A stretch of 48,908 nt of DNA from a virus. Lineage: Duplodnaviria; Heunggongvirae; Uroviricota; Caudoviricetes. This document shows positions 10,767-31,391 of this stretch, piece after piece (positions within the stretch are counted from its first letter, which is position 1; every line of letters starts with the position of its first letter). The notes below the pieces were generated by a model. It ran no database searches. It was not told where the DNA came from and worked only from the letters and a program-made list of their open reading frames with translations. Position numbers and translations under genes: made by a program. The stretch covers positions 1-48,908 of IMG/VR virus record IMGVR_UViG_2897346870_000004; one strand, 5' to 3'.

Positions 10767-10772
10767 CGAACC

Positions 10773-11519
10773 ATGAAAAATATTGCGACAGGCGGCGTTC
10801 TGGAACGCATCCGCCGACTGACCCCGCCACATGTAACCGCCCCATTCAGAACGGTAGCGGAGTGGCGCGAGTGGCAACTTGCTGAAGGCCAGAAACGTAG
10901 CGAGGAGATCAACCGCCTGAATCGCCAGTTGCGGGTGGAAAAAATTCTGAATCGCTCAGGCATCCAGCCGTTGCACCGTAAATGCTCGTTTGCGAATTAC
11001 CAGGTGCAGAACGACGGCCAGCGATACGCGTTAAGCCAGGCGAAATCCATCGCCGATGAACTGATGACCGGGTGTACAAATTTTGCGTTCAGCGGAAAAC
11101 CTGGTACCGGGAAGAATCACTTAGCGGCAGCTATCGGGAATCGCCTGCTGAAAGACGGTCAGACAGTGATTGTGGTTACCGTGGCTGATGTTATGAGTGC
11201 CCTCCACGCCAGCTATGACGACGGGCAGTCAGGCGAAAAATTTTTGCGGGAACTGTGCGAAGTGGATCTGCTGGTTCTTGATGAAATTGGCATTCAGCGC
11301 GAGACGAAAAACGAGCAGGTGGTACTGCACCAGATTATTGATCGACGGACAGCGTCGATGCGTAGCGTGGGAATGCTGACAAACCTGAACTATGAGGCCA
11401 TGAAAACATTGCTCGGCGAGCGGATTATGGATCGCATGACCATGAACGGCGGGCGATGGGTGAATTTTAACTGGGAGAGCTGGCGTCCGAATGTCGTCCA
11501 GCCAGGAATTGCGAAGTAA
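10773..11519 (+). CDS. ydaV: DnaC/IstB-like AAA+ helicase loader YdaV
   Basis: Walker [11 protein letters not shown] and Walker B LLVLDEIG motifs. Confidence 0.85.
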
Positions 11520-11541
11520 TTTTTACCGGGAGAAAAATTTA

Positions 11542-12114
11542 ATGGAGACTGTTTTTGACGCACTGAAAGCAATGGGGAAAGCTACGTCGGTAGAACTGGC
11601 TGCGCGACTTGATATCAGTCGTGAAGAAGTGCTGAACGAGCTGTGGGAACTGAAAAAGGCTGGCTTCGTTGATAAAAGCGTATACACCTGGCGCGTGGCT
11701 GATAACAACGTTCAGCAGGAACAGCCAGAGCAGGCAGAACTGCCGGAAGAAACCACCACGGCAACAGTCGCAAAAATTTCGGAGTGCGATTTAACTGCGA
11801 CGATTGAACAACGTGGCCCACAAACGGCGGATGAACTGGCTACGTTTTTCGGCATCACATCACGCAAAGTGGCTTCAACGCTGGCAATGGCAATCAGTAA
11901 AGGTCGTCTGATTCGCGTTAATCAGAACGGTAAATTTCGTTACTGCATGCCGGGCGATAATTTACCAGCAGAGCCGAAAGCTGCATCGGTAGCGGAAACT
12001 GATGGTAAAGCCTTTCCTCAGCCAGCCGGTGTTGCGTTACCAGTACAGGAAGCGGCAACACAGGAAGATATTAAAACAGAAACTGTGGCGGACATTGTGC
12101 AGTCGCTGCCATAG
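11542..12114 (+). CDS. ydaW: YdaW-like protein (DUF1627-like), apparently full length
   Basis: Start at ATG 11542 with GGGAGA RBS just after the ydaV stop; [33 protein letters not shown]-like N-terminus. Confidence 0.55.
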
Positions 12115-12318
12115 TTTACTGAAACGCAAGCGGATGACCTGGTTTTACCATCGCTGCATATGGCAAACCGCGAACTGCGTCGGGCGAAAAATCATGTCCA
12201 GAAGTGGGAGCGAGTCTGCGCCGCGCTGCGGGAGCTGAACAAGCACCGGGATATTGTCCGACAGATTGTCGATTCCTCCAGTCGTATTGTGTCGGAAAAG
12301 TGATTGCCGGAGGCGCTT

Positions 12319-12735
12319 ATGGCAAAAGTTTTTACACAGGAAGAGCGTGAAAAAATTAAGGAGCAGGTTGTTGAGTTGGTACGCCAGAGTGGGCGCGAGA
12401 CGTTAAGTCAACTGGAGGCCAAGACAGGTGCGACAAGATATCTGATGAGCATTCTTGCCAGAGAGTTGGTTGCCAGTGGCGATGTATACAACTCTGGCTA
12501 TGGGTTATTCCCGTCTGAACAGGCTCGTAAGGATTGGAAAAACGCCCGCAAAAAACTATCCAGGGCAAAGGTGAAAAAAACGGTTGTGGTTGATCCTGAC
12601 CTTATCTGGTCATTACCAGACGGAGAAATACGCCGCTATGACAGGCGTCAGAACATAATCTGTCGCGAGTGCCGGAAGAGTGAAGTTATGAAACGTGTAC
12701 TGGCATTTTATCAAGGAAATCTTCGGTATTTATAG
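12319..12735 (+). CDS. Hypothetical protein (about 138 aa)
   Basis: GGAGG RBS 5 nt upstream of ATG 12319; MAKVFTQEEREKIKEQVVELVRQSGRETLSQLEAKTGATR; no family recognised. Confidence 0.5.
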   Translation: MAKVFTQEEREKIKEQVVELVRQSGRETLSQLEAKTGATRYLMSILARELVASGDVYNSGYGLFPSEQARKDWKNARKKLSRAKVKKTVVVDPDLIWSLPDGEIRRYDRRQNIICRECRKSEVMKRVLAFYQGNLRYL

Positions 12736-12781
12736 ACGTTACTAGATCAAAGAGCATTAGTTCATATGTAAATTGACATTT

Positions 12782-12828
12782 TTCTGGCACAGGGGAGAGC
12801 TAGCGTGGTTGTCCGCTTTGTGCCAGAA
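12782..12828. repeat. 10-bp perfect inverted repeat TTCTGGCACA / TGTGCCAGAA separated by 27 nt
   Basis: Direct reading; at the left boundary of the AT-rich island, no following T-run. Confidence 0.5.
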
Positions 12829-12942
12829 GCGGAAGTTGCTAAAACGGTTTACCGTGTCCAAAGGAGTCAGGGGCAACAACGCGATATTGCTGACTGAGGT
12901 TTGGATCTAATCCTAGGACATGTCAGGAGCAATGCTAATCTA

Positions 12943-12971
12943 TTCATTAAAGCAGAGTATATGCCTATAAT
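12943..12971 (+). promoter_or_regulatory. Candidate sigma70 promoter (TTCATT, 17-nt spacer, TATAAT)
   Basis: Perfect -10 hexamer with a 17-nt spacer to a weak -35, about 84 bp upstream of the 13055 start. Confidence 0.3.
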
Positions 12972-13054
12972 TTAGAACCTTGCTATGGACATGAAAATGT
13001 GTAACATGCAATAGATCTCTACACACAGCAGGATTCCTACACCAAGGAGTGTTT

Positions 13055-13456
13055 ATGATTAACGAATCCAGTCCTTTCCCAGACAACGAAATTATATCCT
13101 TCTATGACTGTACTGGCATGTCCATTTTTTATCTACATAGTGATGGTGAAAGTTTTTATCACTATGACGGAACCCCACTAGCCTATTTATATAATAATGA
13201 ATATATGGTTTCATATTCAGGTCAGTATTTAGGTTGGCTATATAATGGGAGTATTATAGATTATAAAAATGGGGCTTATGTTTTTTTTACAGCTTATAGT
13301 TCTGGTGGGCCATCGCGACCAAGCCGAAAGTCTCGACCAAGTCGATTATCAAGAAGGAGCAGACCTGCTAAATTAATTCGTAATAGTCGACCGTCACGAC
13401 CTTCAAGACAAACCAGATGGAGCGAGCGAAGCAACATGAGTTTTTTCAGTAGTTAA
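13055..13456 (+). CDS. Hypothetical 133-aa protein: fourfold beta-hairpin-like repeat domain plus Ser/Arg/Pro-rich tail (cassette gene 1)
   Basis: AAGGAG RBS 5 nt before ATG 13055; four repeats of Y-x-x-x-G-x-x-[LIV]-x-[YWF]-[LF] (YDCTGMSIFYL, YDGTPLAYL, YSGQYLGWL, YKNGAYVFF); C-terminal SRPSR repeats; AT-rich. Confidence 0.6.
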   Translation: MINESSPFPDNEIISFYDCTGMSIFYLHSDGESFYHYDGTPLAYLYNNEYMVSYSGQYLGWLYNGSIIDYKNGAYVFFTAYSSGGPSRPSRKSRPSRLSRRSRPAKLIRNSRPSRPSRQTRWSERSNMSFFSS

Positions 13457-13534
13457 ATTCTCGTTGTATTAAAAAATAGATTGATTTGAAAGTTAGCATA
13501 TTTACCTACTATCAAATAATGAAAAGGGTTAAAG

Positions 13535-14950
13535 ATGAGTAATCTTCCTACTACAGTAAATACAACCGCAGTAACCACTGGTGTTGATAATTTCACGACG
13601 TCATTAACTACTTACCTCACCGATTTGAATCTTCCGGCAAACGGCGTTTTAGTCGGCAATGATCAGAGGTACACTGTAATTGATAACTTCCCAAAGGTTA
13701 TTGGTGGTATTGACAGTGCAAGGCTTTCAGATTCGTTATATCTATCAAAGTTTATTGCAGCGTGCGGCGCTGGCCTTTTTGATGCAGCACTAAATTTTTT
13801 ATGGAATGAAACAGTAGTAAATTTGAGATGGAAGGTTTCCCTTAACGATATAGACTATTTTTATGACAGTATTGTCACTGACACAAAAAGAAGAGATAAG
13901 CTTAAAACTGTAGATGATTTAGTTAATATAGAGGAGTGGGAGCTTGTTAAGGGTTGCCACTTAACGGGATTACTTTCGGATATAGGTTTTAAACATCTTG
14001 ATTATATAAGAGATATGAGGAACTGGGCTAGTGCAGCACATCCTAACCAAAGTCAGCTAACAGGATTCATGCTCATCTCATGGCTTGAAACCTGCATCAA
14101 AGAAGTGATTGCGAAAGAACCAGAACCTTCTGCATTACAAATAAAGAGAGTACTATCTAACATCAGAGGCGCTAACTTAGAAGGCGATGACTTAGCCCAT
14201 ATAAAATCTGCGATGGAAAACCTACCTCAAGATGTTGTTGATTCTTTCTTAAGAACTATATTTGGGATGTATACTAATGATAACGCGGCTGTACAGGTTA
14301 AGAATAATATAAAAGGAATTGCAAAAAAATGTTGGGATCTTTCGTCAGAAACTACGAAGTATAGTTGTGGTATAAGATATCAATCTTTTGCAGCTAACGG
14401 AGAGAGAGCTAGGAAAGATGCGGCTAATGAGTTTTTAACTACTGTATCTGGTCTTCCATATCTTCCATCAGACTCTTTGGCTGTTGAAATATCAATCAGA
14501 GTGACAAATTTATACCAAGCCCATTTTGGATGGAATAATTTCCATAATGAACCTGCTCATGCATCCTCTTTGGCAGCATATATCTCCTCTGCTGGGAATG
14601 TCCCTGACTCAGTTCGATTTGAATATGTTAAGACTATAGTTTTGTGTTATTTGGGCAACAGCTATGGAGTGTCTAATATGGCCGTTTCTTACTATGAAGA
14701 AATGATTGGTAAGTTCGGCGAGGCAGAGTTAAAAGAGTTCGTAAAAATAATTTATGATAAAGACGTGATATCTAGGCTTGCAACTCAAACATGTGCTTCT
14801 CGATATAAACATATAGCATCCAATTTTGTTAGCAGAACTACCAATCAAATAACCTCGCAAGCTCTTAATGCGATCATAGCATCGACTGCTCTCCAGTTAC
14901 CGAACCTATCGAAAGCAACGGCCTACGATAAACTTATTCGCTCATACTAA
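13535..14950 (+). CDS. Hypothetical 471-aa protein with HEPN-like R-x6-H motif (candidate abortive-infection effector; cassette gene 2)
   Basis: AAAGGG RBS; co-oriented 78 bp downstream of gene 1; followed by a strong terminator; motif RDMRNWASAAH at residues 159-169; no Walker A; AT-rich. Confidence 0.7.
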   Translation: MSNLPTTVNTTAVTTGVDNFTTSLTTYLTDLNLPANGVLVGNDQRYTVIDNFPKVIGGIDSARLSDSLYLSKFIAACGAGLFDAALNFLWNETVVNLRWKVSLNDIDYFYDSIVTDTKRRDKLKTVDDLVNIEEWELVKGCHLTGLLSDIGFKHLDYIRDMRNWASAAHPNQSQLTGFMLISWLETCIKEVIAKEPEPSALQIKRVLSNIRGANLEGDDLAHIKSAMENLPQDVVDSFLRTIFGMYTNDNAAVQVKNNIKGIAKKCWDLSSETTKYSCGIRYQSFAANGERARKDAANEFLTTVSGLPYLPSDSLAVEISIRVTNLYQAHFGWNNFHNEPAHASSLAAYISSAGNVPDSVRFEYVKTIVLCYLGNSYGVSNMAVSYYEEMIGKFGEAELKEFVKIIYDKDVISRLATQTCASRYKHIASNFVSRTTNQITSQALNAIIASTALQLPNLSKATAYDKLIRSY

Positions 14951-14987
14951 ATACTGTGAGACAAAAACAGGCTTAGATCAGATAACA

Positions 14988-15012
14988 GCCCTCTCTATTC
15001 GAGGGCTTTTTT
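14988..15012 (+). terminator. Rho-independent terminator (GCCCTC stem, 7-nt loop, GAGGGC, TTTTTT)
   Basis: Direct reading, 38 bp after the stop of the 471-aa gene. Confidence 0.65.
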
Positions 15013-15102
15013 GTAGGAATGCTTAATTGAATATCCGCTTTTCGCTCAAAGAGGACTAAAATGTTGGCTTGTTTCTGACTTAGAGCATTTAAGGAAGTGC
15101 TG

Positions 15103-15321
15103 GTGGTGACTGGTTGTTGTGTTCCATTTCTACAGAATAAAATCACAGAAACTATACCCAATAGTTGTATTGAATCACTGACGAGACAGCCTCATATTTA
15201 TCAGGACTGGTGTGCGTCTAATACAGGGGGTTGTCGTGCTGGTTCTCAAATGTGCGCTGGCTATTGCGGCTGTAATGGCAATTTATTGTCTTGCTGTTGT
15301 TCTTATGGAGCGGCTTTCTGA
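15103..15321 (+). CDS. Candidate cysteine-rich small protein (about 72 aa, GTG start)
   Basis: AAGGAA RBS 6 nt before GTG 15103; 11 Cys in about 72 residues (GCC, CAGYCGCNGNLLSCCCS); weak support, possibly spurious. Confidence 0.25.
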   Translation: MVTGCCVPFLQNKITETIPNSCIESLTRQPHIYQDWCASNTGGCRAGSQMCAGYCGCNGNLLSCCCSYGAAF

Positions 15322-15473
15322 TTGATTACATACTGGCTAGAAAAAAGGTGTTACCTTGGTTTATCTTTGTCCGGCAAGGTGCGCTCATTAATCTTAAGTA
15401 AATTTATTGCTCAAGTATTCAGATTACTTCTTATGGTTGAAGTCTCCTGTCAATGTAGAACCAATATATTTAC

Positions 15474-15510
15474 AAAAATGAGACCCGTCGGGGATAGCCC
15501 TGCCGGGTCT
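15474..15510 (-). terminator. Hairpin plus T-run terminator for the YeaR-like gene
   Basis: AGACCCG / CGGGTCT stem followed on the minus strand by CATTTTTG, about 30 nt after the stop. Confidence 0.45.
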
Positions 15511-15539
15511 GACTGTTAAAGCATTTTTAATATGATCAT

Positions 15540-15878
15540 CTATTTTTTGGTGCTATAGACTTTTTCGCCCGAGAAGTCTGGAGCGACCCAAAAGTTAATA
15601 TTAAACTGAGCATCATCGCTTAGTTCAACACGGTGCCAGTATTGTGGTGGGCTTGTTGCAAAAGCGCCAGCATTAATGACTACTTTTATCTCCGGTTCAG
15701 TAGCATTCTCATCAGTAAAACCATAATATGTTACAGTGCCTTCCATTACGCACAACTGCCCAAAAACACCTGCTGCTGTATTATGATGTGTTAATAACGC
15801 TGAAGGTACGTTCTCTTTTGTGAAGAACGGAGTTGAGCGTTTGATTACCCAATCTTTAGGAATTCTCTTGTGTGTCAT
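15540..15878 (-). CDS. YeaR-like (DUF1971 / TehB C-terminal-like) protein, 112 aa
   Basis: AGGAGG RBS; motifs RSTPFF, VMEGTVTYYG, EPEIKVVINAGAFATSPPQYWH, FNINFWVAPD resemble my recollection of YeaR; AT-rich moron on the opposite strand to neighbours. Confidence 0.7.
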   Translation of the reverse strand: MTHKRIPKDWVIKRSTPFFTKENVPSALLTHHNTAAGVFGQLCVMEGTVTYYGFTDENATEPEIKVVINAGAFATSPPQYWHRVELSDDAQFNINFWVAPDFSGEKVYSTKK

Positions 15879-15893
15879 AACCACCTCCTCAAA

Positions 15894-15916
15894 AACATGC
15901 ATTATAAATGCGTGTT
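15894..15916. promoter_or_regulatory. NsrR-like 11-1-11 inverted repeat AACATGCATTA-T-AAATGCGTGTT with a TATAAT at its centre on the minus strand
   Basis: Direct reading; 16 bp upstream of the YeaR-like start; resembles the NsrR operator consensus as I recall it (AAnATGCATTT-n-AAATGCATnTT). Confidence 0.4.
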
Positions 15917-16203
15917 TTTGAGGGTTATGTCAAGCTGTTATGAAACACATAATTGATATGTTGATTAGAGGAGAAGATATAATAAATATGGTTGTTTTTC
16001 GTATAACTATTTGTTTTACTTTTAGTTTATGCATTCTGTGTGTTAGGAATAAGTTATTAAAGTTTAATCAAAAAATCTCGATGTAGTCCACATAGATTAT
16101 TGTTACTGAACCTTATTGTGTGTATTAGTTGTGTTCTGAAATTTCAGCTTAATTATTTATGATGTATTTTTTAACGATAAATATTTTCCCAGGATACCTT
16201 TAC

Positions 16204-16230
16204 TGTGTATATAAATAAATTATATACACA
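16204..16230. repeat. 27-bp palindrome TGTGTATATAA-ATAAA-TTATATACACA
   Basis: 11-bp perfect arms with 5-nt spacer inside a roughly 790-bp AT-rich non-coding stretch. Confidence 0.6.
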
Positions 16231-16691
16231 TAAATAATGTAAAGGCGTCCTTTTAGATATATCTTATCAAATGTTAATGACTTGAGTGGGAAATATGATT
16301 CCAGCAACTTATCATGTGGCTACTTTATAAAAATAATGCCCATATAAAACAACAAGCGAAAAGGATTACGGATAAAAAAGGAGCGAGATGTGCGAACTTG
16401 TTATTTTCCATGTTTAACCACCTTAAATAATTGATGATGACGGGATGATTGCATCTGTAATGCTTTTATTGAAATGTTATGATAAAAAAGAACTTTTGCA
16501 TAACATTAAAATGTAATTTATCTAATCGTTTTTAATAATAAATGTCGTATTTCTATCCTTGTACCAGCTATTTGATATGTAGTGTTTGTTCATGCTATGT
16601 GGGGCTTTACACCATAGCCAGTTTATTTATACTTTATTCGTCAGCCTGAACAACTGGCATCTGCTGCGCTGCGCCATCGAGAGATTGAGAA

Positions 16692-17291
16692 ATGGCGCAT
16701 ATACAACTGGTCAAACAAACCTCTTCTGGTTTACTTCTCCCGGCGACGCCGGAGAGTTGCGATTTTCTGCATCAAATCAAAATAGGTGAGTGGATACACG
16801 CAGACTTTAAGCGTGTGCGTAACTACGCATTCCACAAGCGTTTTTTCAAACTCCTGCAACTGGGATTCGATTACTGGACTCCGGTCGGTGGGGCGATCAC
16901 ACCTCGCGAACGAGAACTGCTGTCTGGTTTCGTGGATTACTTGTGCGAATCAGTTGGTCGGGAACACACACCAGCCCTGAGTGATGCCGCAGAGCAATAT
17001 CTAAATACAGTTGCGACACGCAGAACTCGGGATACGGCATTGCTAAAGTCGTTTGAGGCTTTCCGCGAGTGGGTAACCATTCAGGCCGGATTTTACACCG
17101 AGCATATTTATCCGGACGGTAGCCGTGGGCGCAGGGCGAAATCCATCGCGTTTGCGAATATGGACGAAACCGAGTTTCAGCAGGTTTATAAATCTGTTCT
17201 GAATGTGCTGTGGAACTGGATTCTGTTCCGTAAATTCTCCTCTCAGGAGGAAGTTGAAAATGTGGCCGCACAACTACTGGAGTTTGCGTAA
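16692..17291 (+). CDS. Nin-region protein (DUF1367-like)
   Basis: 199-aa ORF at the start of the nin/Q module; family call from recollection. Confidence 0.5.
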   Translation: MAHIQLVKQTSSGLLLPATPESCDFLHQIKIGEWIHADFKRVRNYAFHKRFFKLLQLGFDYWTPVGGAITPRERELLSGFVDYLCESVGREHTPALSDAAEQYLNTVATRRTRDTALLKSFEAFREWVTIQAGFYTEHIYPDGSRGRRAKSIAFANMDETEFQQVYKSVLNVLWNWILFRKFSSQEEVENVAAQLLEFA

Positions 17292-17581
17292 TGGTGAATT
17301 TACGTAAAGCGGCTAAAGGCCAGATGTGCCAGATCAGAATCCCTGGCTACTGCAATCACAATCCCGAAACCTCTGTGCTGGCGCATTACAGGCTGGCGGG
17401 GACGTGCGGAACAGCGACAAAACCACACGATATGCAGGCAGCGATTGCCTGTAGCTCATGCCACGATTTAATCGACGGGCGGGTAAAAACCAGCGATTAC
17501 ACCAAAGAAGAATTACGCCTGATGCATGCAGAAGGTGTTTTTCGCACACAAGAAATCTGGAGAAAGGAAGGTTATTTATGA
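17291..17581 (+). CDS. YbcO-like protein (DUF1364, Cys-rich)
   Basis: 96-aa ORF, TAATG-coupled to the upstream gene; Cys motifs CQIRIPGYCNHNPETSVLAH and ACSSCHD. Confidence 0.55.
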   Translation: MVNLRKAAKGQMCQIRIPGYCNHNPETSVLAHYRLAGTCGTATKPHDMQAAIACSSCHDLIDGRVKTSDYTKEELRLMHAEGVFRTQEIWRKEGYL

Positions 17582-18120
17582 TTTACCCAACAAATACAGG
17601 CAAAAGCGGGGAACACCTTCGTCTCACCACGCTGGAAAGTGTCTGGATTCAGGGAAAACTGCGCATGTGGGGGCGCTGGTCGTATATTGGCGGCGGTAAG
17701 ACGGGAAATATGTTTAACCAGTTGCTGGCATCCAAAAAATTGACGAAAACAGCCGTCAATGAAGCCCTGCGCAGGATGAAAAAAGCGGGAATAGAGAAAC
17801 CTGAGCTGGAAGCGTTTTTGCGAGAGATGATCAATGGCAAGCAAAAGACCTGGCTGGCGCATTGTACTGATGCAGAGGCGTTATGTATTGATAGAGTCAT
17901 AAGTGAGGTGCTGGCAGAGCATCCTGGATTGATTAGTGTCCTCCGGCAACGGTATGAAGGACGGGGGATGACTAAGCGCAAAATGGCTGAATTGCTAAAT
18001 GATGCACATCCTGAGTGGTGTTTTAGCACATGCGAAAAGCGAATTGCTAATTGGTTGGCTGTTGCTGAGTATGCCCTATATATTCCCATGCGAGAATCAT
18101 TTGCTCAAAAAATAGCTTGA
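17578..18120 (+). CDS. Putative late-gene antiterminator Q (phage 82-type family)
   Basis: ATGA-coupled start at 17578; LRMWGRWSYIGGG motif resembles Q82-type antiterminators as I recall them; position immediately upstream of the lysis region. Confidence 0.55.
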   Translation: MIYPTNTGKSGEHLRLTTLESVWIQGKLRMWGRWSYIGGGKTGNMFNQLLASKKLTKTAVNEALRRMKKAGIEKPELEAFLREMINGKQKTWLAHCTDAEALCIDRVISEVLAEHPGLISVLRQRYEGRGMTKRKMAELLNDAHPEWCFSTCEKRIANWLAVAEYALYIPMRESFAQKIA

Positions 18121-18204
18121 TTTTTTACGCATAAACTGCTTCAATTCCGGTATGCTTCGCAAAGCTGTATCGCGAGGCGAACCAAGCGCATGAACTTTAC
18201 CAGA

Positions 18205-18232
18205 ACCCGCCATTGAGCGGGTTTTGTTGTTT
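18205..18232 (+). terminator. tR'-like intrinsic terminator (ACCCGC-cattga-GCGGGT-TTTGTTGTTT)
   Basis: Hairpin plus T-rich tract about 85 bp downstream of the Q stop. Confidence 0.5.
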
Positions 18233-18341
18233 CTGGTACTGGCGAACCTGATGTTTCATTTCTGGAGCGCGATTCCTGGCGGAATACCTAGAATCGAGAC
18301 ATTCTGGTAAAATTGTTTTCAGTACAGGATGTGGAGGTGAG

Positions 18342-18911
18342 ATGAGAGAACTACCTAAAGATTATTTTTTAGGAGTAGATGATGAGCTCGTCGATTATCT
18401 TGAAAAACAAGGGGAAGAGACGATACGAGAGATTCATCTTTCTAACAAAACCAATGTTGAGAATGGATACAAACTTCTGAACATTCAGATTGTTGGAATT
18501 GGTTCATCTTTTTTATTGCTGACACAGAAAACTAATTTCGATTTTCTCACCGCCGGAATTACCACATTTACATTACTATGGACATGGTGCGCCATTTACT
18601 TGGTATGTACTGGTTTATCTGTGAAGGTTAGGGGCCTGATCAATGCCCCTCCTGATCATCTATATCATGAAAAATATAAGGATATGGAGCCCTCGAGCTT
18701 TAAAATATTCGCTGATGCAGGATATTTAGGACCTGATAAGTTATTGCCGCTTATACGAAGGTATCGCCTTGTTGACTTGAGTGATACAGCAAGAGAGTTA
18801 CTGTTGGAAAATGAGAAAATCCGCACGAGTCTCGATAAAGCAAGGATGTATACCATCCTTGCTCCGGTAGCGGCGATGTTTATCTCGGCTGTTTTTTTAT
18901 ATGTTCAATGA
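18342..18911 (+). CDS. Hypothetical membrane protein (189 aa) inserted between Q and holin
   Basis: Strong GGAGGTGA RBS; three hydrophobic segments (one C-terminal); AT-rich. Confidence 0.5.
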   Translation: MRELPKDYFLGVDDELVDYLEKQGEETIREIHLSNKTNVENGYKLLNIQIVGIGSSFLLLTQKTNFDFLTAGITTFTLLWTWCAIYLVCTGLSVKVRGLINAPPDHLYHEKYKDMEPSSFKIFADAGYLGPDKLLPLIRRYRLVDLSDTARELLLENEKIRTSLDKARMYTILAPVAAMFISAVFLYVQ

Positions 18912-19041
18912 CTGAGTCGGCAGAATCTCCAACAAAAACACGACGTGTAGCAAAGTCTGTAGTACTTTGTATTGGAGTTGGTTTTGGTGCCACGGGTTGC
19001 TGAGGTTTATTTTCACCTTGTGGTTTGTTTTTTTCAGACAT
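18880..19041 (-). CDS. Hypothetical small protein (53 aa), convergent and overlapping the 3' end of the membrane-protein gene
   Basis: AGAGGA RBS before ATG 19041; low-complexity Pro/Gln-rich N-terminus. Confidence 0.3.
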   Translation of the reverse strand: MSEKNKPQGENKPQQPVAPKPTPIQSTTDFATRRVFVGDSADSVIEHIKKQPR

Positions 19042-19258
19042 AAAAATCCTCTTTGTTTGAATTGTTACTTTTGGCGATTTAACGATATCAAACACGAGTA
19101 TATACCGCCAGAAGCTTAATCTGGCACTCCATCTGGCCCCGGCATGTCCCGGGGCTTTTTCGTTGTTAGGCTCCGGAAACATCCTCGACTTCTTGTTAGC
19201 AAGCCTGAGAGCCTGAATCTTACACTTAGCACCATCCGAACTCTCGGAGGTGAGGCTT

Positions 19259-19600
19259 ATGAAAATGCACAATGCCCCTCATTCCTGGCCTGACTTACTG
19301 GAACTCTTACAAAGTTGGTGGCGTGGAGATACGCCGCTGGGTGCAGTGGTTATGTCAATTATTATGGCTGGTTTGCGCATTGCCTATTTTGGCTGTGGCG
19401 GCGGCTGGAAACGAAAAACGCTTGAGATTCTGCTTTGTGGTGCTCTGACGCTGACCTTTGCATCCGCGCTTGAGTATGTCGGATGGCCTAAATCACTTTC
19501 TGTTGCCATTGGTGGTGGGGTGGGGCTGATTGGTGTTGATGCTATTCGTGGTGCGGCAATGAGGGTCATCGGTAACAAGTTCGGTGCCCATAAGGAGTAA
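19259..19600 (+). CDS. Putative class I holin with MKM dual-start motif
   Basis: GGAGGTGAGG RBS; three predicted TM segments; immediately upstream of the endolysin; lambda S-like Met-Lys-Met start. Confidence 0.65.
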   Translation: MKMHNAPHSWPDLLELLQSWWRGDTPLGAVVMSIIMAGLRIAYFGCGGGWKRKTLEILLCGALTLTFASALEYVGWPKSLSVAIGGGVGLIGVDAIRGAAMRVIGNKFGAHKE

Positions 19601-19603
19601 TTA

Positions 19604-20080
19604 ATGCAGACACTTAATTCCCAGCGTAAAGCTTTCCTTGATATGGTGGCATGGTCAGAAGGAACAGATAACGGACGGCAGAAAACCAGAAATCACGGTT
19701 ATGATGTTATTGTCGGTGGCGAACTGTTCACTGATTACTCCGATCACCCCCGCAAACTTGTCACGCTAAATCCGAAACTCAAATCAACAGCCGCTGGACG
19801 TTACCAGCTTCTTTCACGCTGGTGGGATGCCTACCGCAAGCAACTTGGCCTGAAAGATTTTTCTCCAGAAAGTCAGGATGCTGTAGCGCTGCAGCAGATT
19901 AAAGAGCGTGGCGCTTTGCCGATGATTGATCGCGGTGATATCCGTCAGGCTATCGACCGTTGCAGCAATATATGGGCTTCACTGCCGGGCGCTGGTTATG
20001 GTCAGTTCGAGCATAAGGCTGACAGTCTGATTGCAAAATTCAAAGAAGCTGGCGGAACGGTCAGAGAGATTGAGGTATGA
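19604..20080 (+). CDS. R: Endolysin (lambda R-type lytic transglycosylase)
   Basis: [47 protein letters not shown] matches recalled lambda R almost throughout. Confidence 0.9.
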
Positions 20081-20541
20081 GCAGAGTAACCGCGATTATC
20101 TCCGCTCTGGTTATCTGCATCGTCGTCTGCCTGTCATGGGCTGTTAATCATTACCGTGATAACGCCATTACCTACAAAGCCCAGCGCGACAAAAATGCCA
20201 GAGAACTGAAGCTGGCGAACGCGGCAATTACTGACATGCAGATGCGTCAGCGTGATGTTGCTGCGCTCGATGCAAAATACACGAAGGAGTTAGCTGATGC
20301 GAAAGCTGAAAATGATGCTCTGCGTGATGATGTTGCCGCTGGTCGTCGTCGGTTGCACATCAAAGCAGTCTGTCAGTCAGTGCGTGAAGCCACCACCGCC
20401 TCCGGCGTGGATAATGCAGCCTCCCCCCGACTGGCAGACACCGCTGAACGGGATTATTTCACCCTCCGGGAACGACTGGTAATGATGCAGGCCCAACTTG
20501 AAGGTGCTCAGCAATACATAACCGAGCAGTGTTTAAAGTAA
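20077..20541 (+). CDS. Rz: i-spanin Rz
   Basis: [55 protein letters not shown] matches recalled lambda Rz. Confidence 0.9.
20297..20482 (+). CDS. Rz1: o-spanin Rz1 (lipoprotein, embedded in the +1 frame of Rz)
   Basis: Lipobox LVVVGC followed by a Pro-rich segment; entirely inside Rz. Confidence 0.85.
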
Positions 20542-20678
20542 AATCTTAACTACAATATGATTCATTTTGATGATTGTTTCATAAGGAACAGTGAAGTAAG
20601 ATCTAAGAGGAGTTAAATTTTATACAGTATAATCATAATATTGCAGCAAGGTGGTTATAATTGAAAGAATATTTAGAT

Positions 20679-22136
20679 ATGAATACATCTCATGTAAGAG
20701 TTGTTACTCATATGTGTGGGTTCTTGGTTTGGCTCTATAGTCTTTCAATGTTGCCACCAATGGTTGTAGCATTGTTTTATAAAGAAAAAAGCCTGTTCGT
20801 TTTCTTTATAACTTTCGTTATATTTTTTTGCATTGGTGGCGGAGCGTGGTATACAACTAAGAAATCTGGCATTCAATTACGTACCCGTGATGGGTTTATT
20901 ATAATTGTAATGTTTTGGATTTTGTTTTCTGTTATTAGTGCATTCCCTTTATGGATTGACTCAGAACTTAATTTAACGTTCATTGATGCTCTGTTTGAAG
21001 GGGTTTCTGGAATAACAACAACAGGAGCAACTGTAATTGATGATGTTAGTTCATTACCTCGGGCATATTTGTACTATCGGTCACAGTTAAATTTTATAGG
21101 TGGTTTAGGAGTTATTGTTCTGGCGGTTGCAGTATTGCCATTATTGGGTATTGGTGGTGCAAAGCTTTATCAGTCAGAAATGCCGGGGCCATTTAAGGAT
21201 GACAAACTCACTCCCCGCCTGGCCGATACGTCACGGACACTGTGGATAACTTATTCTTTATTAGGTATTGCTTGTATTGTCTGTTATAGACTTGCAGGAA
21301 TGCCTTTGTTTGATGCTATTTGTCACGGGATTTCCACAGTTTCGCTTGGTGGTTTCTCAACTCATAGCGAGAGTATCGGATATTTTAATAACTATTTGGT
21401 TGAGCTGGTGGCTGGTTCTTTTTCCCTGCTATCGGCTTTCAACTTCACTCTTTGGTATATTGTTATTAGCAGAAAAACGATAAAACCTTTAATCAGAGAT
21501 ATTGAACTTCGTTTCTTTCTGTTAATAGCCTTAGGGGTGATCATTGTTACCTCTTTCCAGGTCTGGCATATAGGTATGTATGACTTGCATGGAAGTTTTA
21601 TTCATTCGTTTTTTCTTGCCAGCTCCATGCTCACTGATAATGGTTTAGCTACGCAGGATTATGCAAACTGGCCCACGCACACGATAGTGTTTTTGCTGTT
21701 GTCAAGTTTCTTTGGGGGATGTATAGGTTCAACCTGTGGTGGAATTAAGTCACTTCGATTTCTTATACTTTTCAAACAAAGCAAACACGAGATAAATCAG
21801 CTTTCTCATCCCAGAGCGTTGTTGAGTGTAAATGTAGGAGGGAAGATAGTTACAGATCGTGTAATGAGGTCTGTATGGAGTTTCTTTTTTCTTTATACTC
21901 TCTTCACGGTGTTTTTTATACTGGTGTTAAATGGTATGGGATATGATTTTCTTACATCATTTGCAACAGTGGCTGCATGTATTAATAATATGGGATTAGG
22001 TTTTGGGGCTACTGCATCGTCATTCGGAGTGCTTAATGACATTGCAAAATATTTAATGTGCATAGCTATGATTCTTGGTCGCCTTGAAATTTATCCTGTT
22101 ATTATATTGTTTTCAGGTTTTTTTTGGCGCTCCTAA
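20679..22136 (+). CDS. trkG: Potassium uptake protein TrkG
   Basis: MNTSHVRVVTHMCGFLVWLYSLSMLPPMVVALFYKEKSLF matches recalled Rac TrkG; polytopic membrane protein; AT-rich. Confidence 0.9.
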   Translation: MNTSHVRVVTHMCGFLVWLYSLSMLPPMVVALFYKEKSLFVFFITFVIFFCIGGGAWYTTKKSGIQLRTRDGFIIIVMFWILFSVISAFPLWIDSELNLTFIDALFEGVSGITTTGATVIDDVSSLPRAYLYYRSQLNFIGGLGVIVLAVAVLPLLGIGGAKLYQSEMPGPFKDDKLTPRLADTSRTLWITYSLLGIACIVCYRLAGMPLFDAICHGISTVSLGGFSTHSESIGYFNNYLVELVAGSFSLLSAFNFTLWYIVISRKTIKPLIRDIELRFFLLIALGVIIVTSFQVWHIGMYDLHGSFIHSFFLASSMLTDNGLATQDYANWPTHTIVFLLLSSFFGGCIGSTCGGIKSLRFLILFKQSKHEINQLSHPRALLSVNVGGKIVTDRVMRSVWSFFFLYTLFTVFFILVLNGMGYDFLTSFATVAACINNMGLGFGATASSFGVLNDIAKYLMCIAMILGRLEIYPVIILFSGFFWRS

Positions 22137-22273
22137 TATATGGCTGATTTATAATTGTGAGTTTAATATTATGTTGACTCACTCATTGATCCAATACCTA
22201 ACTTTACCAGCAACACCTCCGCCCCCAGTAGCACTGGCTGCTGGGGTGCGTTTTATTCATAAAGCAAGGCTGT

Positions 22274-23065
22274 ATGAGCGAGAAATTAAAGATAGTCTAT
22301 CGCCCATTACAAGAATTGTCACCGTATGCGCACAACGCCAGGACGCACAGCCCTGAGCAGGTGGCACAACTGGTAGAAAGTATTAAGCAATTCGGCTGGA
22401 CTAATCCGGTGCTGATTGACGAAAAGGGCGAAATTATTGCGGGTCACGGTCGTGTTATGGCGGCTGAAATGCTCAAAATGGATTCTGTTCCGGTCATTGT
22501 TCTGTCTGGCCTGACGGATGAGCAGAAAAAGGCGTACCGCCTGGCAGATAATCGCCTGCCGATGAATGCTGGCTGGGATGAAGATCTGTTGCGGATGGAG
22601 CTGTCGGACCTAATCAATGCTGATTTTGATGTCTCCCTGACAGGCTTCATCCCGACAGAAATTGATGAACTGTTGACGGATGTTTTGCCCGGTACAGGAA
22701 ATGAGGAGGAGCCGTATACGACGAAAATTGATACGCCTGTTTATGAGCCGTCGGGCGGTAAACCGGATATCAGTGAACTGTACGACGATACGAAAACTCA
22801 GGAGCTGATCAGCCGGATACGTTCGGCGTCCCTTGAGCCTGATATTGAGAAATTCCTCCTGTGTGCGGCAGAACGTCACACGGTGTTTAATTTCAGCAGA
22901 ATTGCGGACTATTACGCTCACGCCCCCGCTGAAATTCAGTGTTTTTTCGAGGAGTCGGCGCTGGTGATCATTGATTATCAGCAGGCTATTGAAAATGGAT
23001 TTGTCCGGATGACGCAGCGCATGGTGGAGATCATGCATGGTGGTGAGGAGGAGGAATATGCGTGA
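22274..23065 (+). CDS. ParB-like nuclease-domain protein
   Basis: N-terminal ParB/Srx-like block LIDEKGEIIAGHGRVMAAEML ... KKAYRLADNRL; C-terminal about 160 aa unassigned. Confidence 0.7.
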   Translation: MSEKLKIVYRPLQELSPYAHNARTHSPEQVAQLVESIKQFGWTNPVLIDEKGEIIAGHGRVMAAEMLKMDSVPVIVLSGLTDEQKKAYRLADNRLPMNAGWDEDLLRMELSDLINADFDVSLTGFIPTEIDELLTDVLPGTGNEEEPYTTKIDTPVYEPSGGKPDISELYDDTKTQELISRIRSASLEPDIEKFLLCAAERHTVFNFSRIADYYAHAPAEIQCFFEESALVIIDYQQAIENGFVRMTQRMVEIMHGGEEEEYA

Positions 23066-23990
23066 TGATTTTTGCGCCTTTATTCTGACTCACGGGCGAC
23101 CAGACAAAGTTCTGACTTACCGGACGTTGCGTCGTGCTGGCTATACCGGGAAAATTTTTATCGTTGTTGATGATGAAGATAAGACACGGCATCAGTACAT
23201 GGCTGAATTTGGTGAACAGGTGCTGGTGTTTTCCAAAGCCGATATCGCCAGTCGTTTTGACGAAGCCGATAATTTCTGTGACCGCCGCTCAATTTTTTAC
23301 GCCCGTAATGCCTGTTTTGACCTGGCAAAACTGGTCGGGTGTAAATACTTCATTCAGCTCGATGATGATTATCACGAGTTCCAGTTTCGGGTGGATCGCA
23401 ACTATGACCAGGCCTATTTTCCGATAAGGAAACTGGATGCGATCCTTTCTGAAATGCTGGCGTACTACGAATCAATACCTGCTCTTTCCATCGCTATGTC
23501 GCAGGGCGGGGATTTTCTTGGTGACAATGGCGGCCATGCTTCGTGGGTGAAACGCAAGGCAATGAACAGCTTTATCTGTTCGGTTGATCGACCGTTCTCA
23601 TTCATGGGGCGCATTAACGAGGATGTGAATACGTACACGAATCTCGGTCGCTGTGGTGAATTGTTTATGACGATCGGTGCTGTCCAGTTAGGGCAGAAAC
23701 AGACGCAGAAAAACAGCGGCGGAATGACCGAGCTGTATCTGGATTCCGGAACCTACGTTAAAAGTTTTTACTCCGTCATGTATGCGCCGTCGTGCGTAAA
23801 AATTTCACTGATGGGTGCCAGCCATAAACGCATTCACCATCAGGTCACCTGGAACAACGCTGCAGTAAAAATCCTTCACGAAAAATACAGGAAGAAGACA
23901 CCCTGCATATCAATGGGGGTGACAAATGATTCCGTATTCGAAAGTCGAGTCTCTGGCAGCGTGCCGGATGACTGCACAACAAATCGCTGA
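23058..23990 (+). CDS. Hypothetical protein (about 310 aa), coupled to the ParB-like gene
   Basis: GAGGAGGAG RBS; start overlaps the upstream stop by 8 nt; acidic IVVDDEDK and QLDDDYHEF segments; function unknown. Confidence 0.5.
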   Translation: MRDDFCAFILTHGRPDKVLTYRTLRRAGYTGKIFIVVDDEDKTRHQYMAEFGEQVLVFSKADIASRFDEADNFCDRRSIFYARNACFDLAKLVGCKYFIQLDDDYHEFQFRVDRNYDQAYFPIRKLDAILSEMLAYYESIPALSIAMSQGGDFLGDNGGHASWVKRKAMNSFICSVDRPFSFMGRINEDVNTYTNLGRCGELFMTIGAVQLGQKQTQKNSGGMTELYLDSGTYVKSFYSVMYAPSCVKISLMGASHKRIHHQVTWNNAAVKILHEKYRKKTPCISMGVTNDSVFESRVSGSVPDDCTTNR

Positions 23991-24177
23991 CGTTCTGGAT
24001 GTTGATCTGAACCGACTGAAAGAAAATCGGGAAGCAATGACAGATTTTTATGCGGCCATCCGTAAGGGCAGAGCGAAAGGTGAAGCCGAGTTACGAGCGG
24101 CATTGTTTAAGCTTGCCAGAAAAGGGGATGCCTTTGCTCTGCGCGAACTACTCAGGGTGGATAAAAATCAGGACTAA
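23926..24177 (+). CDS. Small putative DNA-binding protein upstream of terminase
   Basis: GGGGGTGA RBS; MTAQQIADVLDVDLNRLKENREAM HTH-like segment; overlaps the preceding gene by 65 nt, start uncertain. Confidence 0.4.
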   Translation: MIPYSKVESLAACRMTAQQIADVLDVDLNRLKENREAMTDFYAAIRKGRAKGEAELRAALFKLARKGDAFALRELLRVDKNQD

Positions 24178-24180
24178 CTG

Positions 24181-25275
24181 ATGAGCAGACCGGACTGGGG
24201 GGCGTTGCAGCAGGAGTATATTGCTGAATACACCCGCTCCGGTATATCTCCGGTGGCATGGTGTGAAGCAAGGGGACTGAATTACGCAACAGCCCGTCGT
24301 TACATCAAAAAAACTCCGAAAAATGCGCAGACAGAAATGCGCAAAACTGCGCAAAAAAGTGCGCAGAAAAAATCTGCGCAGACTGCACAAAAGCGGAACG
24401 AAAAATCTCAGGAAAAAAAGCCAGTATTCGATGCGGGCCTGAATGAGGGCGACGCGGAGGAATTTTCGTTCTGTCCCGATGAATTCGGCATTTCTGACCA
24501 GCAGGCTAAGTTTGCGATGCTTGTTGCTCAGGGTAAAAAGCCGACAGAGGCGTACCGACTAGCCGGTTATGAGGGGCAAGGTGCGACAGCTAACAGCAAC
24601 GCCAGTCGTATGCTTAGAAATGCCAGGGTTTTTCGCGCTATCAGCTACTTCCGCAATCAGTACCAGAAACGCTATACCGCAGACCTGGATTTACTAGTGA
24701 GTCAGTTGATGGCCATTGTCCTGGCCGACCCCAATCAGCTTGCACAATTTCGCCGTGTTAACTGCCGTTATTGCTGGGGCGAGAATCATCTCTACCAGTG
24801 GCGCGATATAGCAGAATTCGACAAGGCAGCGGCGCAGGCTTCCAGAGATGGCAAACCCGAACCGGAATATGGAGGCCTCGGCTTTGTTGATAACGCCATA
24901 CCCAATCCGGACTGCCCGAAGTGCTGCGGTGAGGGAACGGGACAGCTTTATATGGCTGATACCACTCTGCTTGATGGGGATGCGCGGCAATTATATGCAG
25001 GGGCAAAATTCGGAAAATTCGGCGTTGAGATCCTGCTGGAGGATAAGGCTGCCGCCCGGCGTGAATTGTTGCGTTTGCTTTCTGCTGGCGGGGCTTTATG
25101 TGCAGATAAGCGGCTACAGGAACTGGAAATTGAACGGCGCAGAATGGAAAACCAGAAGCTGCGCAAAGAGATCGAAACGGTGGAAGATAATGAACATCCC
25201 CAGCCTGTGGCGATCAATATTAATGTGGTTGATGCCAGAGTAAGGAGTGATGAAGATGATCTCTCCGACGCTTAA
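24181..25275 (+). CDS. Terminase small subunit
   Basis: FGISDQQAKFAMLVAQGKKPTEAYRLAGYEG motif as I recall it from small terminases; precedes the large subunit. Confidence 0.65.
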   Translation: MSRPDWGALQQEYIAEYTRSGISPVAWCEARGLNYATARRYIKKTPKNAQTEMRKTAQKSAQKKSAQTAQKRNEKSQEKKPVFDAGLNEGDAEEFSFCPDEFGISDQQAKFAMLVAQGKKPTEAYRLAGYEGQGATANSNASRMLRNARVFRAISYFRNQYQKRYTADLDLLVSQLMAIVLADPNQLAQFRRVNCRYCWGENHLYQWRDIAEFDKAAAQASRDGKPEPEYGGLGFVDNAIPNPDCPKCCGEGTGQLYMADTTLLDGDARQLYAGAKFGKFGVEILLEDKAAARRELLRLLSAGGALCADKRLQELEIERRRMENQKLRKEIETVEDNEHPQPVAININVVDARVRSDEDDLSDA

Positions 25276-26557
25276 TGTGCCTCAGGCGCGATTTCTTTCA
25301 ATGCCCCATAAATTTAAAGCCTATATTGCTGGTTTTGGCTCGGGCAAAACATGGGTTGGGTGTGGCGGCATATGCAAGGGGATTTGGGAGCATCCAGGTA
25401 TAAATCAGGGATATTTTGCGCCAACGTATCCCCAAATTCGCGATATTTTTTACCCTACAGTGGAAGAAGTTGCTGCTGACTGGGGATTGAACGTAAAAAT
25501 TAATGAGGGAAATAAAGAGGTTCACTTTTATTACGGACGCCAGTATCGGGGAACCACTATCTGCAGATCGATGGAGAAGCCACAAACGATCGTCGGTTTC
25601 AAAATTGGTAATGCGTTGGTGGATGAACTGGACATTTTGCCGAAGGAAAAAGCCAGAACGGCGTGGCGCAAGATAATTGCACGTATGCGTTATAAGATTG
25701 ATGGACTTCGCAACGGTATTGACGTTACAACCACGCCGGAAGGATTCAAATTTGTCTACGAGCAGTTTGTTAAAGCCGTGCGTGAAAAAACAGAGCTGGC
25801 CTCACTGTATGGTCTGGTGCAGGCATCTACTTTCGATAATGAAAAGAACCTGCCAGCAGATTACATTCCTTCGCTTCTTGAATCATACCCTCCAGAGCTG
25901 ATTAAAGCCTATCTGCGAGGACAGTTTACTAACCTGACAAGTGGTACTGTTTACCATCAGTTTGACCGGAAACTGAATAATTGCGAAGAAGTGGAGCAGC
26001 CAGGGGAGCCGATTTATATTGGGATGGATTTTAACGTTGGAAAGATGGCGGGAATCGTCCATGTGCTGCGTTTGGGGCTTCCATGTGCGGTAACTGAAAT
26101 CATCAATGCCTACGATACGCCGGATATGATCCGCATCATTAAAGAACGCTTCTGGCTGTATGATGGGAATGATTACCGGAAAGTGAGGGAAATTTATATT
26201 TATCCAGATGCTTCCGGGGATTCCAGAAAATCAAGTAACGCAAGTACGACGGATATAGCCCAGCTTAAGCAGGCTGGTTTTAACGTTGTGGTGAACAGCT
26301 CGAACCCGCCAGTAAAAGATCGCGTTAACTCAATGAATGCAATGTTCTGCAATGCCAATGGTGAGCGTCGCTATAAAGTTAATGTGAAGCGTTGCCCGTT
26401 ATATGCCGAATCTCTGGAGCAACAGGTCTGGGATGAGAAGGGGGAGCCTGATAAAAAATCTGGCAATGATCACCCGAATGATGCCGGAGGTTATTTCATC
26501 GTTAAGCAATTCCCTATTGTCAAACCGACCGGAAGAGTCACATCACTTCGGATTTAA
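25247..26557 (+). CDS. Terminase large subunit
   Basis: Walker A AGFGSGKT near the N-terminus; C-terminal nuclease-like region; followed by portal. Confidence 0.85.
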   Translation: MMKMISPTLNVPQARFLSMPHKFKAYIAGFGSGKTWVGCGGICKGIWEHPGINQGYFAPTYPQIRDIFYPTVEEVAADWGLNVKINEGNKEVHFYYGRQYRGTTICRSMEKPQTIVGFKIGNALVDELDILPKEKARTAWRKIIARMRYKIDGLRNGIDVTTTPEGFKFVYEQFVKAVREKTELASLYGLVQASTFDNEKNLPADYIPSLLESYPPELIKAYLRGQFTNLTSGTVYHQFDRKLNNCEEVEQPGEPIYIGMDFNVGKMAGIVHVLRLGLPCAVTEIINAYDTPDMIRIIKERFWLYDGNDYRKVREIYIYPDASGDSRKSSNASTTDIAQLKQAGFNVVVNSSNPPVKDRVNSMNAMFCNANGERRYKVNVKRCPLYAESLEQQVWDEKGEPDKKSGNDHPNDAGGYFIVKQFPIVKPTGRVTSLRI

Positions 26558-26559
26558 TT

Positions 26560-31388: not shown

Positions 31389-31391
31389 CAC

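Follow-up and report, generated by a model that had tools for sequence, protein, structure and literature searches.

A putative autonomous moron of two convergent genes between the late antiterminator and the holin of a Rac-type prophage

What does a lambdoid prophage carry between its late antiterminator gene, Q, and its holin gene, and is such cargo one gene or a unit of several? The question is raised by a stretch of 48,908 nucleotides, IMG/VR record IMGVR_UViG_2897346870_000004 (the window, throughout), which holds an intact Rac-type lambdoid prophage of Escherichia coli. The original prediction for this locus had been a moron consisting of a single membrane-protein gene, placed where Shiga-toxin (Stx) phages hold stx. 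Extra DNA does lie at this junction, and its gene is AT-rich and co-oriented with the late operon, but the unit consists of two genes. Our best reading of the comparative data is that positions 18237–19166 form an autonomous moron cassette of 0.9 kb, laid out as terminator, promoter, a gene for a 189-amino-acid predicted inner-membrane protein (M189), a convergent gene for a 53-amino-acid protein (S53), the S53 promoter and a second terminator (Table 1). The single-gene account had missed that second terminator (19135–19156), the conservation of S53 as a gene and the union of both genes in one cassette.

The two genes and their signals

M189 had been described as a well-signalled, AT-rich gene for a membrane protein, a description that held up in each respect. 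A Shine-Dalgarno (SD) sequence, GGAGG (18333–18337), lies 4 nt 5′ of its ATG, and its GC content is 0.389 (0.409 for the whole cassette) as against 0.471 for Q and 0.494 and 0.507 for the flanks. Its AlphaFold2 (AF2) model, with a predicted local distance difference test score (pLDDT) of 82, has three long helices that contain hydrophobic segments (residues 14–62, 68–92 and 134–188). Combining these helices with hydropathy and charge analysis, we predict a small inner-membrane protein with three transmembrane (TM) helices, in which an acidic N-terminal helix would lie in the cytoplasm, TM1 and TM2 would form a hairpin rich in Gly, Ser and Thr, and a basic, cytoplasmic helical region of ~75 residues would precede a C-terminal TM3. 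Homology searches returned many relatives (104 homologues, almost all of ~189 amino acids, and 102 cluster representatives at E ≤ 0.001 among 1.84 billion proteins) but no characterised family: M189 had no match in Pfam, NCBIfam or PADLOC, the comparison of 59 distant family members with Pfam gave four sub-threshold matches to DUF or membrane families only, the best sequence-profile match in the PDB had E = 0.2, and the PHROG search returned the unknown-function family phrog_11870 alone. A literature search by protein accession found no papers. Longer 'fusion' relatives (P0164, P0197 and others) were repeats or over-long open reading frame (ORF) calls, not informative domain fusions. For the distant relative P0149, the search for its locus returned no match.

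The convergent ORF that had been noted at the 3′ end of M189 was confirmed, including its overlap with that gene. An SD sequence, AAGAGG (19048–19053), lies 6 nt 5′ of its ATG. Homologues of S53 are 41–64 amino acids long, with all length differences in whole codons, and follow the consensus MSxxNKPxGExKPQ..., a variable Pro/Gln-rich stretch, the motif DF(A/S)xxR(V/M)xVGDSA(D/E) and a basic KK tail. In that motif, which lies outside the overlap with M189, the variability at codon positions 1, 2 and 3 is 0.23, 0.14 and 0.48, respectively, and the ratio of nonsynonymous to synonymous polymorphism (pN/pS) for S53 is ~0.45–0.55. Because insertions and deletions keep the frame and third positions vary in excess, S53 is evidently coding, and the comparative data indicate that it is a real gene, not an incidental ORF. 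RefSeq/PGAP annotates it as a 71-amino-acid protein starting at a GTG at 19095; this version is too long and runs into the putative promoter, since an in-frame stop directly precedes the S53 Met in several loci. Comparison across loci puts translation initiation at ATG 19041, giving 53 amino acids. The Pro/Gln/Lys-rich composition suggests that the protein is probably largely disordered. S53 had no match in Pfam or NCBIfam, neither it nor the 71-amino-acid version matched any PADLOC-DB v2 family at E ≤ 1, and the PHROG search returned the unknown-function family phrog_14506 alone. In many genomes, S53 is without annotation.

Both genes are preceded by conserved −10-like elements. A TAAAAT-type hexamer lies 26–36 nt 5′ of the M189 ATG in most of 31 loci, with (C/G)ATT(C/G)AGG conserved just upstream of it. 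Before S53, the positions TG, TA(T) and GT of the leader show little or no variation across all 18 loci aligned (18 of 18), and the 27-nt block as a whole, TGATATCGTTAAATCGCCAAAAGTAAC, occurs once in the window where 0 occurrences are expected by chance, and is better conserved across loci than the coding sequence of either gene. At the equivalent position, the Pasteurella homologue has TTGTCA-17-TATAAT, which matches the consensus promoter at 11 of 12 positions. The extended −10 accounts for only the first 9 nt of the 27-nt leader, of which the first 17 transcribed bases are strongly conserved. RNAalifold detected no conserved structure in the leader (−1.1 kcal/mol), and all Rfam matches at E ≤ 5 within 17900–19400 were at chance level.

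The left boundary of the cassette is a hairpin that the original prediction had seen between Q and the holin and that is indeed present, as judged from a terminator scan, the fold and a conserved boundary. Its stem AACCCGC/GCGGGTT (18204–18223) can be extended to 18201–18226 and is followed by the T-rich tail TTGTTGTTTCTG; when 18150–18245 was folded (z = −2.2), the hairpin formed as drawn. The case for it as a terminator rests on conservation; the consensus scan by itself was not above chance (4 terminator-like sites versus 1.8 ± 1.3 expected). We searched 17900–19500 as a query against 5,426 complete E. coli genomes, of which 2,201 matched and only 224 carried most of the query. In the remaining matching genomes, the Q end aligned up to ~18225–18235, where homology ended. 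The Q-linked block closed by this hairpin is found in >1,400 E. coli genomes (>25% of the complete genomes) and the M189/S53 cassette in ~4%. Four aligned loci that share the DUF1133-type Q and have unrelated DNA downstream hardly differ over the ~65 nt that follow the stop codon of Q, and in one (L005) a hairpin of other sequence occupies the position of the terminator. Four DUF1133-type Q loci outside the window continue with different cargo, in line with the predicted moron at this junction: tRNAs with DUF6645, tRNAs, or IS1 with TolA-like genes. In a fifth (L002), IS3 replaces most of M189. In detail, with L003, L004 and L005 as the loci compared, the cargo is tRNA-Met with DUF6645/DUF1378/DUF826, tRNA-Thr/Gly, or IS1 with TolA-like genes.

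The right boundary is a second terminator hairpin (8 pairs, 7 of them G-C, in the terminator scan), which is stronger than the first. Such bracketing recurs in the family: plus-strand terminator-like hairpins lie 5′ of M189 in 24 of 29 loci and past the S53 promoter in 20 of 29, and in 17 loci the downstream hairpin begins 86–99 nt beyond the S53 ATG, with stem sequences that differ from locus to locus. Because the right terminator lies beyond the S53 promoter, the M189 transcript would be complementary to the entire S53 mRNA; because S53 transcription would begin at an extended −10 promoter belonging to that gene and run towards M189, the two mRNAs would be complementary at their 3′ ends. A hairpin inside M189 (18842–18860) was considered as a terminator for S53, from reading the sequence only, and we make no claim for it. 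The marks of a moron, namely extra DNA at a junction, deviant GC content and a terminator of its own, are all found in the cassette. Its own promoter-like elements and bracketing terminators point to expression from the repressed prophage, supplemented by late read-through. At 0.9 kb, with two putative promoters and two terminators, it makes a clean experimental unit.

Pairing of the genes and occurrence of the cassette

Among the loci retrieved through their similarity to M189, tblastn detected S53 in most, adjoining M189 at its 3′ end in convergent orientation, even at 50–75% M189 identity, and more divergent versions were found on reading the remaining loci. Its frame, its Met start with SD sequence and its C-terminal motif are retained in ~30 loci, down to 37% identity, and in every locus examined, from Enterobacterales to Pasteurella, an S53-type ORF converges on M189 and either overlaps its 3′ end or directly adjoins it. 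The genes are still paired at ~30% M189 identity, in an AT-rich IMG/VR phage contig as well as in Pasteurella multocida, whose small protein reads MSNQKPSQPKPQ...VFIGDSVD..KKK; two high-GC phage contigs have a Pro-rich convergent ORF, possibly S53, at the same position. Among 70 distinct loci, down to ~25% M189 identity, none had an intact M189 without S53, a count that follows manual correction of regular-expression misses and of one ambiguous base. Pairwise distances of M189 and S53 are correlated (Mantel r = 0.76), and none of 5000 permutations reached this value. In one locus (L081), 18237–19044 is replaced by an allele 58% (M189) and 48% (S53) identical, within flanks that are 91.5% (18107–18236) and 97.6% (19045–19800) identical to the window; because this core was swapped within near-identical flanks, the two coding regions travel as one block. 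Two tightly linked genes inherited as a unit, as in toxin-antitoxin systems, are thus what the locus contains. S53, by this comparative evidence, is an obligate and co-evolving partner of M189, a partner that annotation often misses or begins at an incorrect codon. That the genes are always paired, diverge together and are replaced as a block points to two products acting on each other.

In the comparison of L081 (1–2505) with 18107–19800 of the window, one breakpoint falls where tR′ ends and the other at the start codon of S53, and the conserved S53 leader may serve as a recombination anchor. Truncated M189 alleles of ~100–130 amino acids, which end after TM2, recur in several species (L105 from Klebsiella pneumoniae, P0097, P0033, P0084, P0100 and P0104); some are widespread, with P0097 present in 40 contig-index blocks and P0033 in 37.

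The cassette is widespread in prophages across Enterobacterales and Pasteurellales, yet both of its genes are annotated as 'hypothetical'. M189 family members were found in IMG/VR viral contigs and prophage-type gene contexts only. In Enterobacterales, the cassette almost always lies between a late antiterminator gene and the lysis genes, with neighbours that are unrelated among phages. Upstream are three unrelated Q families (PF03589, the lambda Q; PF06530/DUF1133; or PF06323) or KilA-N/Rha; the lysis genes that follow encode holins of the Phage_holin_3_1 or Phage_holin_8 family or without classification, and endolysins of the lysozyme, GH108 or GH19 type. In some loci a further moron, such as a DNA methylase gene, stands between cassette and lysis genes. 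Other sites are used as well. In Klebsiella and in four IMG/VR loci, the cassette and a Rha/KilA-N gene lie together within the tail operon, immediately 5′ of the tape measure gene in the gap that follows the tail chaperone; L105 and the L065-type loci have this tail-operon site. In Pasteurella (L104) and one AT-rich IMG/VR phage contig (L097) it flanks cI in the immunity region, and the Pasteurella copy also adjoins a RelE/ParE pair. Isolated phages rarely carry it: tblastn of M189 against the phage collection gave 5 records. The protein search also gave two plasmid records, one from E. coli and one of 260 kb from Pasteurella, the latter with the cassette in a prophage-like region. This Pasteurella multocida 'plasmid' (L104, NZ_CP113523.1) contains a lambdoid immunity region (cII, cro and cI), RelE/ParE and M189/S53, and could be either a phage-plasmid or a piece of chromosome assigned wrongly.

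The comparison with stx holds in part. In the window the cassette lies 3′ of the Q-linked promoter and terminator, 5′ of the holin gene and co-oriented with the late genes, as expected of late cargo, in the same slot as the cargo of Stx phages (PMC6266700, PMC8136144). Moreover, some relatives of Stx phages have a DUF1133-type Q, and read-through by Q-modified polymerase would be expected. The cassette differs in not being a toxin operon, in having its own insulated signals and an antisense partner and in occurring outside this slot; because it also occurs beside cI and in tail operons, the stx-like position is not essential to its action.

What the pair may do

What, then, might two such products do? 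We favour, at somewhat less than even confidence, the reading that M189 and S53 are a cognate antagonistic pair, a membrane effector and its small inhibitor, within an autonomous moron that late transcription overrides. M189 would be the effector, and the S53 protein together with its antisense transcript would be a small, probably labile inhibitor of it. The repressed prophage would express the two of them, and the lysogen would thereby have a unit of exclusion or abortive infection that resembles a toxin/antitoxin pair. At the Q–holin junction, Q-modified polymerase would read through both terminators, leading to over-expression of M189, and would run head-on over the S53 promoter, colliding with S53 transcription, and in late lytic growth the balance would tip to M189. 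If this is true, the pair would be a new family among prophage exclusion and abortive-infection systems; otherwise, it would be one more ordinary moron.

Several observations weigh against the antagonistic pair. Searches of Pfam, NCBIfam, PADLOC and PHROGs with M189 and S53 returned no toxin, antitoxin, defence or exclusion family, and M189, at 189 amino acids, is far larger than the typical membrane toxins of antisense-controlled systems. Neither of the −10-like elements was picked up by the consensus promoter scan of the window, and the one before M189 has no conserved −35 in 31 loci, for which reason we call its promoter function putative. Finally, M189 is broken and S53 intact in L002 (IS3), in L105 (a nonsense allele common in Klebsiella) and in L107, whereas S53 is frameshifted in L106; with only 3 cases, and with M189 a 3.6-fold larger target for mutation, this asymmetry is suggestive and not significant.

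Phage phi80 provides a system for comparison. There, the antisense defence gene taiEcA lies within a Q-controlled operon and its level falls when Q is supplied, and the 'noncontiguous operon' pairs this antisense gene, for a 26-kDa defence protein, with a sense gene for a small counter-defence protein, as described by He et al. 2024 (PMC11364771). The cassette resembles taiEcA/atiEcA in having an opposite-strand gene within a Q-controlled late operon beside a co-oriented partner; the phi80 pair is functionally antagonistic, and late transcription lowers its antisense gene. It differs in that its sense gene encodes the larger, membrane protein and its antisense gene the ~6-kDa S53. A comparison of sizes (26 kDa for TaiEcA versus ~6 kDa for S53) argues against homology, and inhibition of tail assembly is not implied. 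After phi80 tai/ati, the cassette would be a second natural gene pair wired antisense into a Q-controlled late operon, of use to researchers of phage defence and lysis timing.

Type I toxin-antitoxin loci with convergent antitoxin RNAs that overlap the 3′ end include txpA/RatA and bsrG/SR4 of Bacillus prophages, and hok/sok-type loci likewise encode membrane toxins. As in such loci, the cassette combines, as a tight pair within a prophage, a gene for a membrane protein with an oppositely directed transcript that would be complementary to the 3′ end of that gene; the differences are that M189 has 189 amino acids and three helices as against toxins of <60 amino acids, that the antisense partner codes for a protein and that no family match was found. 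A fuller form of the antagonistic-pair reading, which as a whole we consider unlikely, would make M189/S53 a toxin/antitoxin-like exclusion system of an unrecognised kind. The small and probably disordered product of the convergent, 3′-overlapping gene, together with the antisense transcript of that gene, would restrain the membrane effector with its three helices; the switch would be a loss of S53 supply, whether through host shut-off by a foreign phage that infects the lysogen or through head-on, Q-antiterminated transcription on induction of the resident prophage; the effector would abort foreign infections and advance or secure the prophage's own lysis; and the divergent alleles would reflect specificity under diversifying selection.

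A second reading, to which we give some weight while thinking it rather unlikely, is superinfection exclusion by a single effector: M189 alone would, like HK97 gp15 or P22 SieA, keep the DNA of incoming phages from entering, and S53 would only tune its expression, as antisense RNA, small regulator or both. Morons of lambdoid phages were reportedly described by Juhala et al. in 2000 and by Cumby et al. in 2012, and membrane proteins of exclusion and abortive infection in prophages include lambda RexA/RexB and P22 SieA and SieB. Like lambdoid morons, the cassette is an extra segment of deviant GC content at classic moron sites, with its own promoter-like and terminator elements and a co-oriented gene for a small inner-membrane protein, as single-effector exclusion would have it. 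Its site between tail chaperone and tape measure is that of the gene 15 moron of HK97, the prototype among lambdoid phages, whose original site is that gap (PMC3594210). The divergent alleles within near-identical flanks, moreover, would fit an arms race with incoming phages. The cassette departs from these morons in comprising two genes, of which the second runs towards the first and overlaps its 3′ end, and in having no sequence relation to gp15/YebO; family searches extended this lack of similarity to SieA, SieB and Imm. With RexAB, SieA and SieB (PMC10883804 is cited for this class), M189 shares being a prophage membrane protein beside regulatory regions, the Pasteurellaceae cassette lying on the cI side as does lambda rexAB; it differs in that Pfam searches detected no homology and that its partner is a tiny cytoplasmic protein encoded on the other strand. 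That S53 is kept as a protein with a motif of its own and co-diverges with M189 also exceeds what a pure regulator of expression would need.

The position of the cassette might instead suggest a modulator of lysis or of the late cycle, made mainly from the Q-antiterminated transcript, that tunes holin triggering (for example, by lowering the membrane potential) or protects the cell late, with S53 guarding the lysogen against leaky expression. Among Enterobacterales, the cassette nearly always directly precedes the holin gene in the same orientation, the tail-operon site is likewise within a late operon, the three TM helices of M189 are holin-like in being rich in small and polar residues, and head-on late transcription should, by the phi80 precedent, silence S53. 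However, the cassette is indifferent to the family of the adjoining holin and endolysin, is much rarer than the Q block in complete E. coli genomes, has its own promoter-like elements and flanking terminators, and is not constantly linked to lysis genes, the Pasteurellaceae copy beside cI and RelE/ParE being far from them. The original prediction had named a recognisable lysis function as grounds for abandoning the cargo interpretation, and M189 matched no lysis family in Pfam, NCBIfam or PHROGs. Because the cassette is indifferent to adjoining lysis genes, absent from most phages with the same Q, found far from lysis genes and without a lysis-family match, a dedicated role in lysis is unlikely.

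Quite improbable, in our judgement, is that the cassette is some other lysogenic-conversion cargo, with M189 altering host physiology (envelope stress, transport or colonisation) and having no part in phage conflict or lysis. Its moron architecture, the trkG, tRNA and TolA-like genes among same-site neighbours and the lack of a defence signature in PADLOC would suit such cargo, but an obligate convergent partner and block-wise allele replacement are unexpected for a simple conversion gene, and the finding of the family in viral contigs and prophage-type contexts only also counts against this reading. Least of all do we credit the idea, very improbable on these data, that the 53-amino-acid ORF is not a gene, only a chance ORF or a template for antisense RNA: it is short and of low complexity, often unannotated or given another start by PGAP, and its protein search found close relatives only, but its frame, SD-preceded Met and motif persist across the ~30 loci, its length changes by whole codons, and variability at third positions is two to three times that at the first and second.

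The Q module and the surrounding prophage

The features of the locus are collected in Table 1. The conserved unit that is the sole matched part in most of the 2,201 genomes, 18107–18236, comprises the 3′ end of Q and ~115 nt, with the terminator last. In the lambdoid paradigm, the late promoter region PR′/qut lies just 3′ of Q. The unit looks like a PR′-qut-tR′ arrangement (late promoter and terminator) belonging to the DUF1133-type Q, for which we know of no mapping. On the same paradigm, we infer a candidate late promoter of the Q module within it; the consensus promoter scan of the window did not pick up this candidate. The Q-like protein itself matches PF06576 (DUF1133) at E = 2.8e-109 (362.7 bits), scores 28 bits against PF06530 (Phage_antitermQ), barely above the curated cut-off of 26, and belongs to phrog_753, 'anti-termination protein Q-like'. 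DUF1133 is given as a Q antiterminator, by HHpred, in a table of a survey of Stx phages (PMC8136144).

Table 1. Coordinates of the cassette and its neighbouring features in the window
Feature	Coordinates	Strand	Basis or remarks
DUF1367 gene	16692–17291		start of the gene order, upstream of YbcO
YbcO/DUF1364 gene	17291–17581		between the DUF1367 gene and the Q-like gene
Q-like late antiterminator gene	17578–18120	+	Pfam and PHROG matches; upstream border of the insertion site
Candidate late promoter of the Q module	18117–18160	+	TTGATT, 17 nt, TTCAAT, then −10-like TATGCT (18151–18156)
tR′-like intrinsic terminator	18201–18236	+	terminator scan, fold, end of homology; left cassette boundary
Putative own promoter of M189	18300–18313	+	conserved CATTCTGG-TAAAAT block; TGgTAAAAT (18305–18313) reads as an extended −10
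M189, 189-aa predicted inner-membrane protein, phrog_11870	18342–18911	+	homologues, AF2, hydropathy
S53, 53-aa hydrophilic Pro/Gln/Lys-rich protein, phrog_14506	18880–19041	−	convergent with M189, 32-nt 3′ overlap
Putative S53 promoter/leader block TGATATCGTTAAATCGCCAAAAGTAAC	19064–19090	−	TG-n-TATCGT (19082–19090) reads as an extended −10
Small inverted repeat CCAGA-n7-TCTGG	19108–19124	.	between S53 promoter and terminator; in most loci of alignment A6, loop varies
Second intrinsic terminator	19135–19166	+	GGCCCCGG...CCGGGGC and T run; right cassette boundary
Holin, lambda family	19259–19600	+	Phage_holin_3_1, E = 5.9e-27; TIGR01594
GH24 endolysin	19604–20080	+	Pfam, NCBIfam; RefSeq annotation of a 99.9%-identical locus
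Rz	20077–20541	+	Pfam, NCBIfam; RefSeq annotation of a 99.9%-identical locus; lysis genes span 19259–20541

A phage record assigned to another host also contains this module: 'Actinobacillus phage vB_Apl-pPE4' (L094, PP818812.1) has a Q-tR′ block of the E. coli type (nucleotide identity 95%), a version of the M189/S53 cassette with 53% identity and the gene order of an E. coli lambdoid prophage, and its assignment to Actinobacillus pleuropneumoniae looks doubtful.

The Rac remnant of E. coli K-12 MG1655 (L109, 1419000–1426500) has the order ydaW, rzpR pseudogene, rzoR, trkG; compared with 16692–20541 of the window, its YbcO, Q, M189, S53, holin and endolysin stretch is deleted, and because of this deletion the cassette cannot be studied in that laboratory strain. 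Compared with E. coli D3 (L108), the window is collinear at 99.1% over 16183–31926 only. On either side (1–16182 and 31927–48908), the early region and some of the tail genes' DNA form a mosaic (84–97% identical or unmatched). The D3 annotation is not transferable to the early genes of the window. D3 has a Hok/Gef gene and a DUF1971 gene immediately before the position of the DUF1367 gene. In the window, the segment 5′ of that gene (15900–16650) is very AT-rich (GC 0.26–0.32) and without a long ORF. At the other end of the locus, directly 3′ of Rz, lies the AT-rich (GC ~0.32–0.43) K+ transporter gene trkG (20661–22136), which is a second moron of the prophage, in the same place as in the Rac prophage of K-12.

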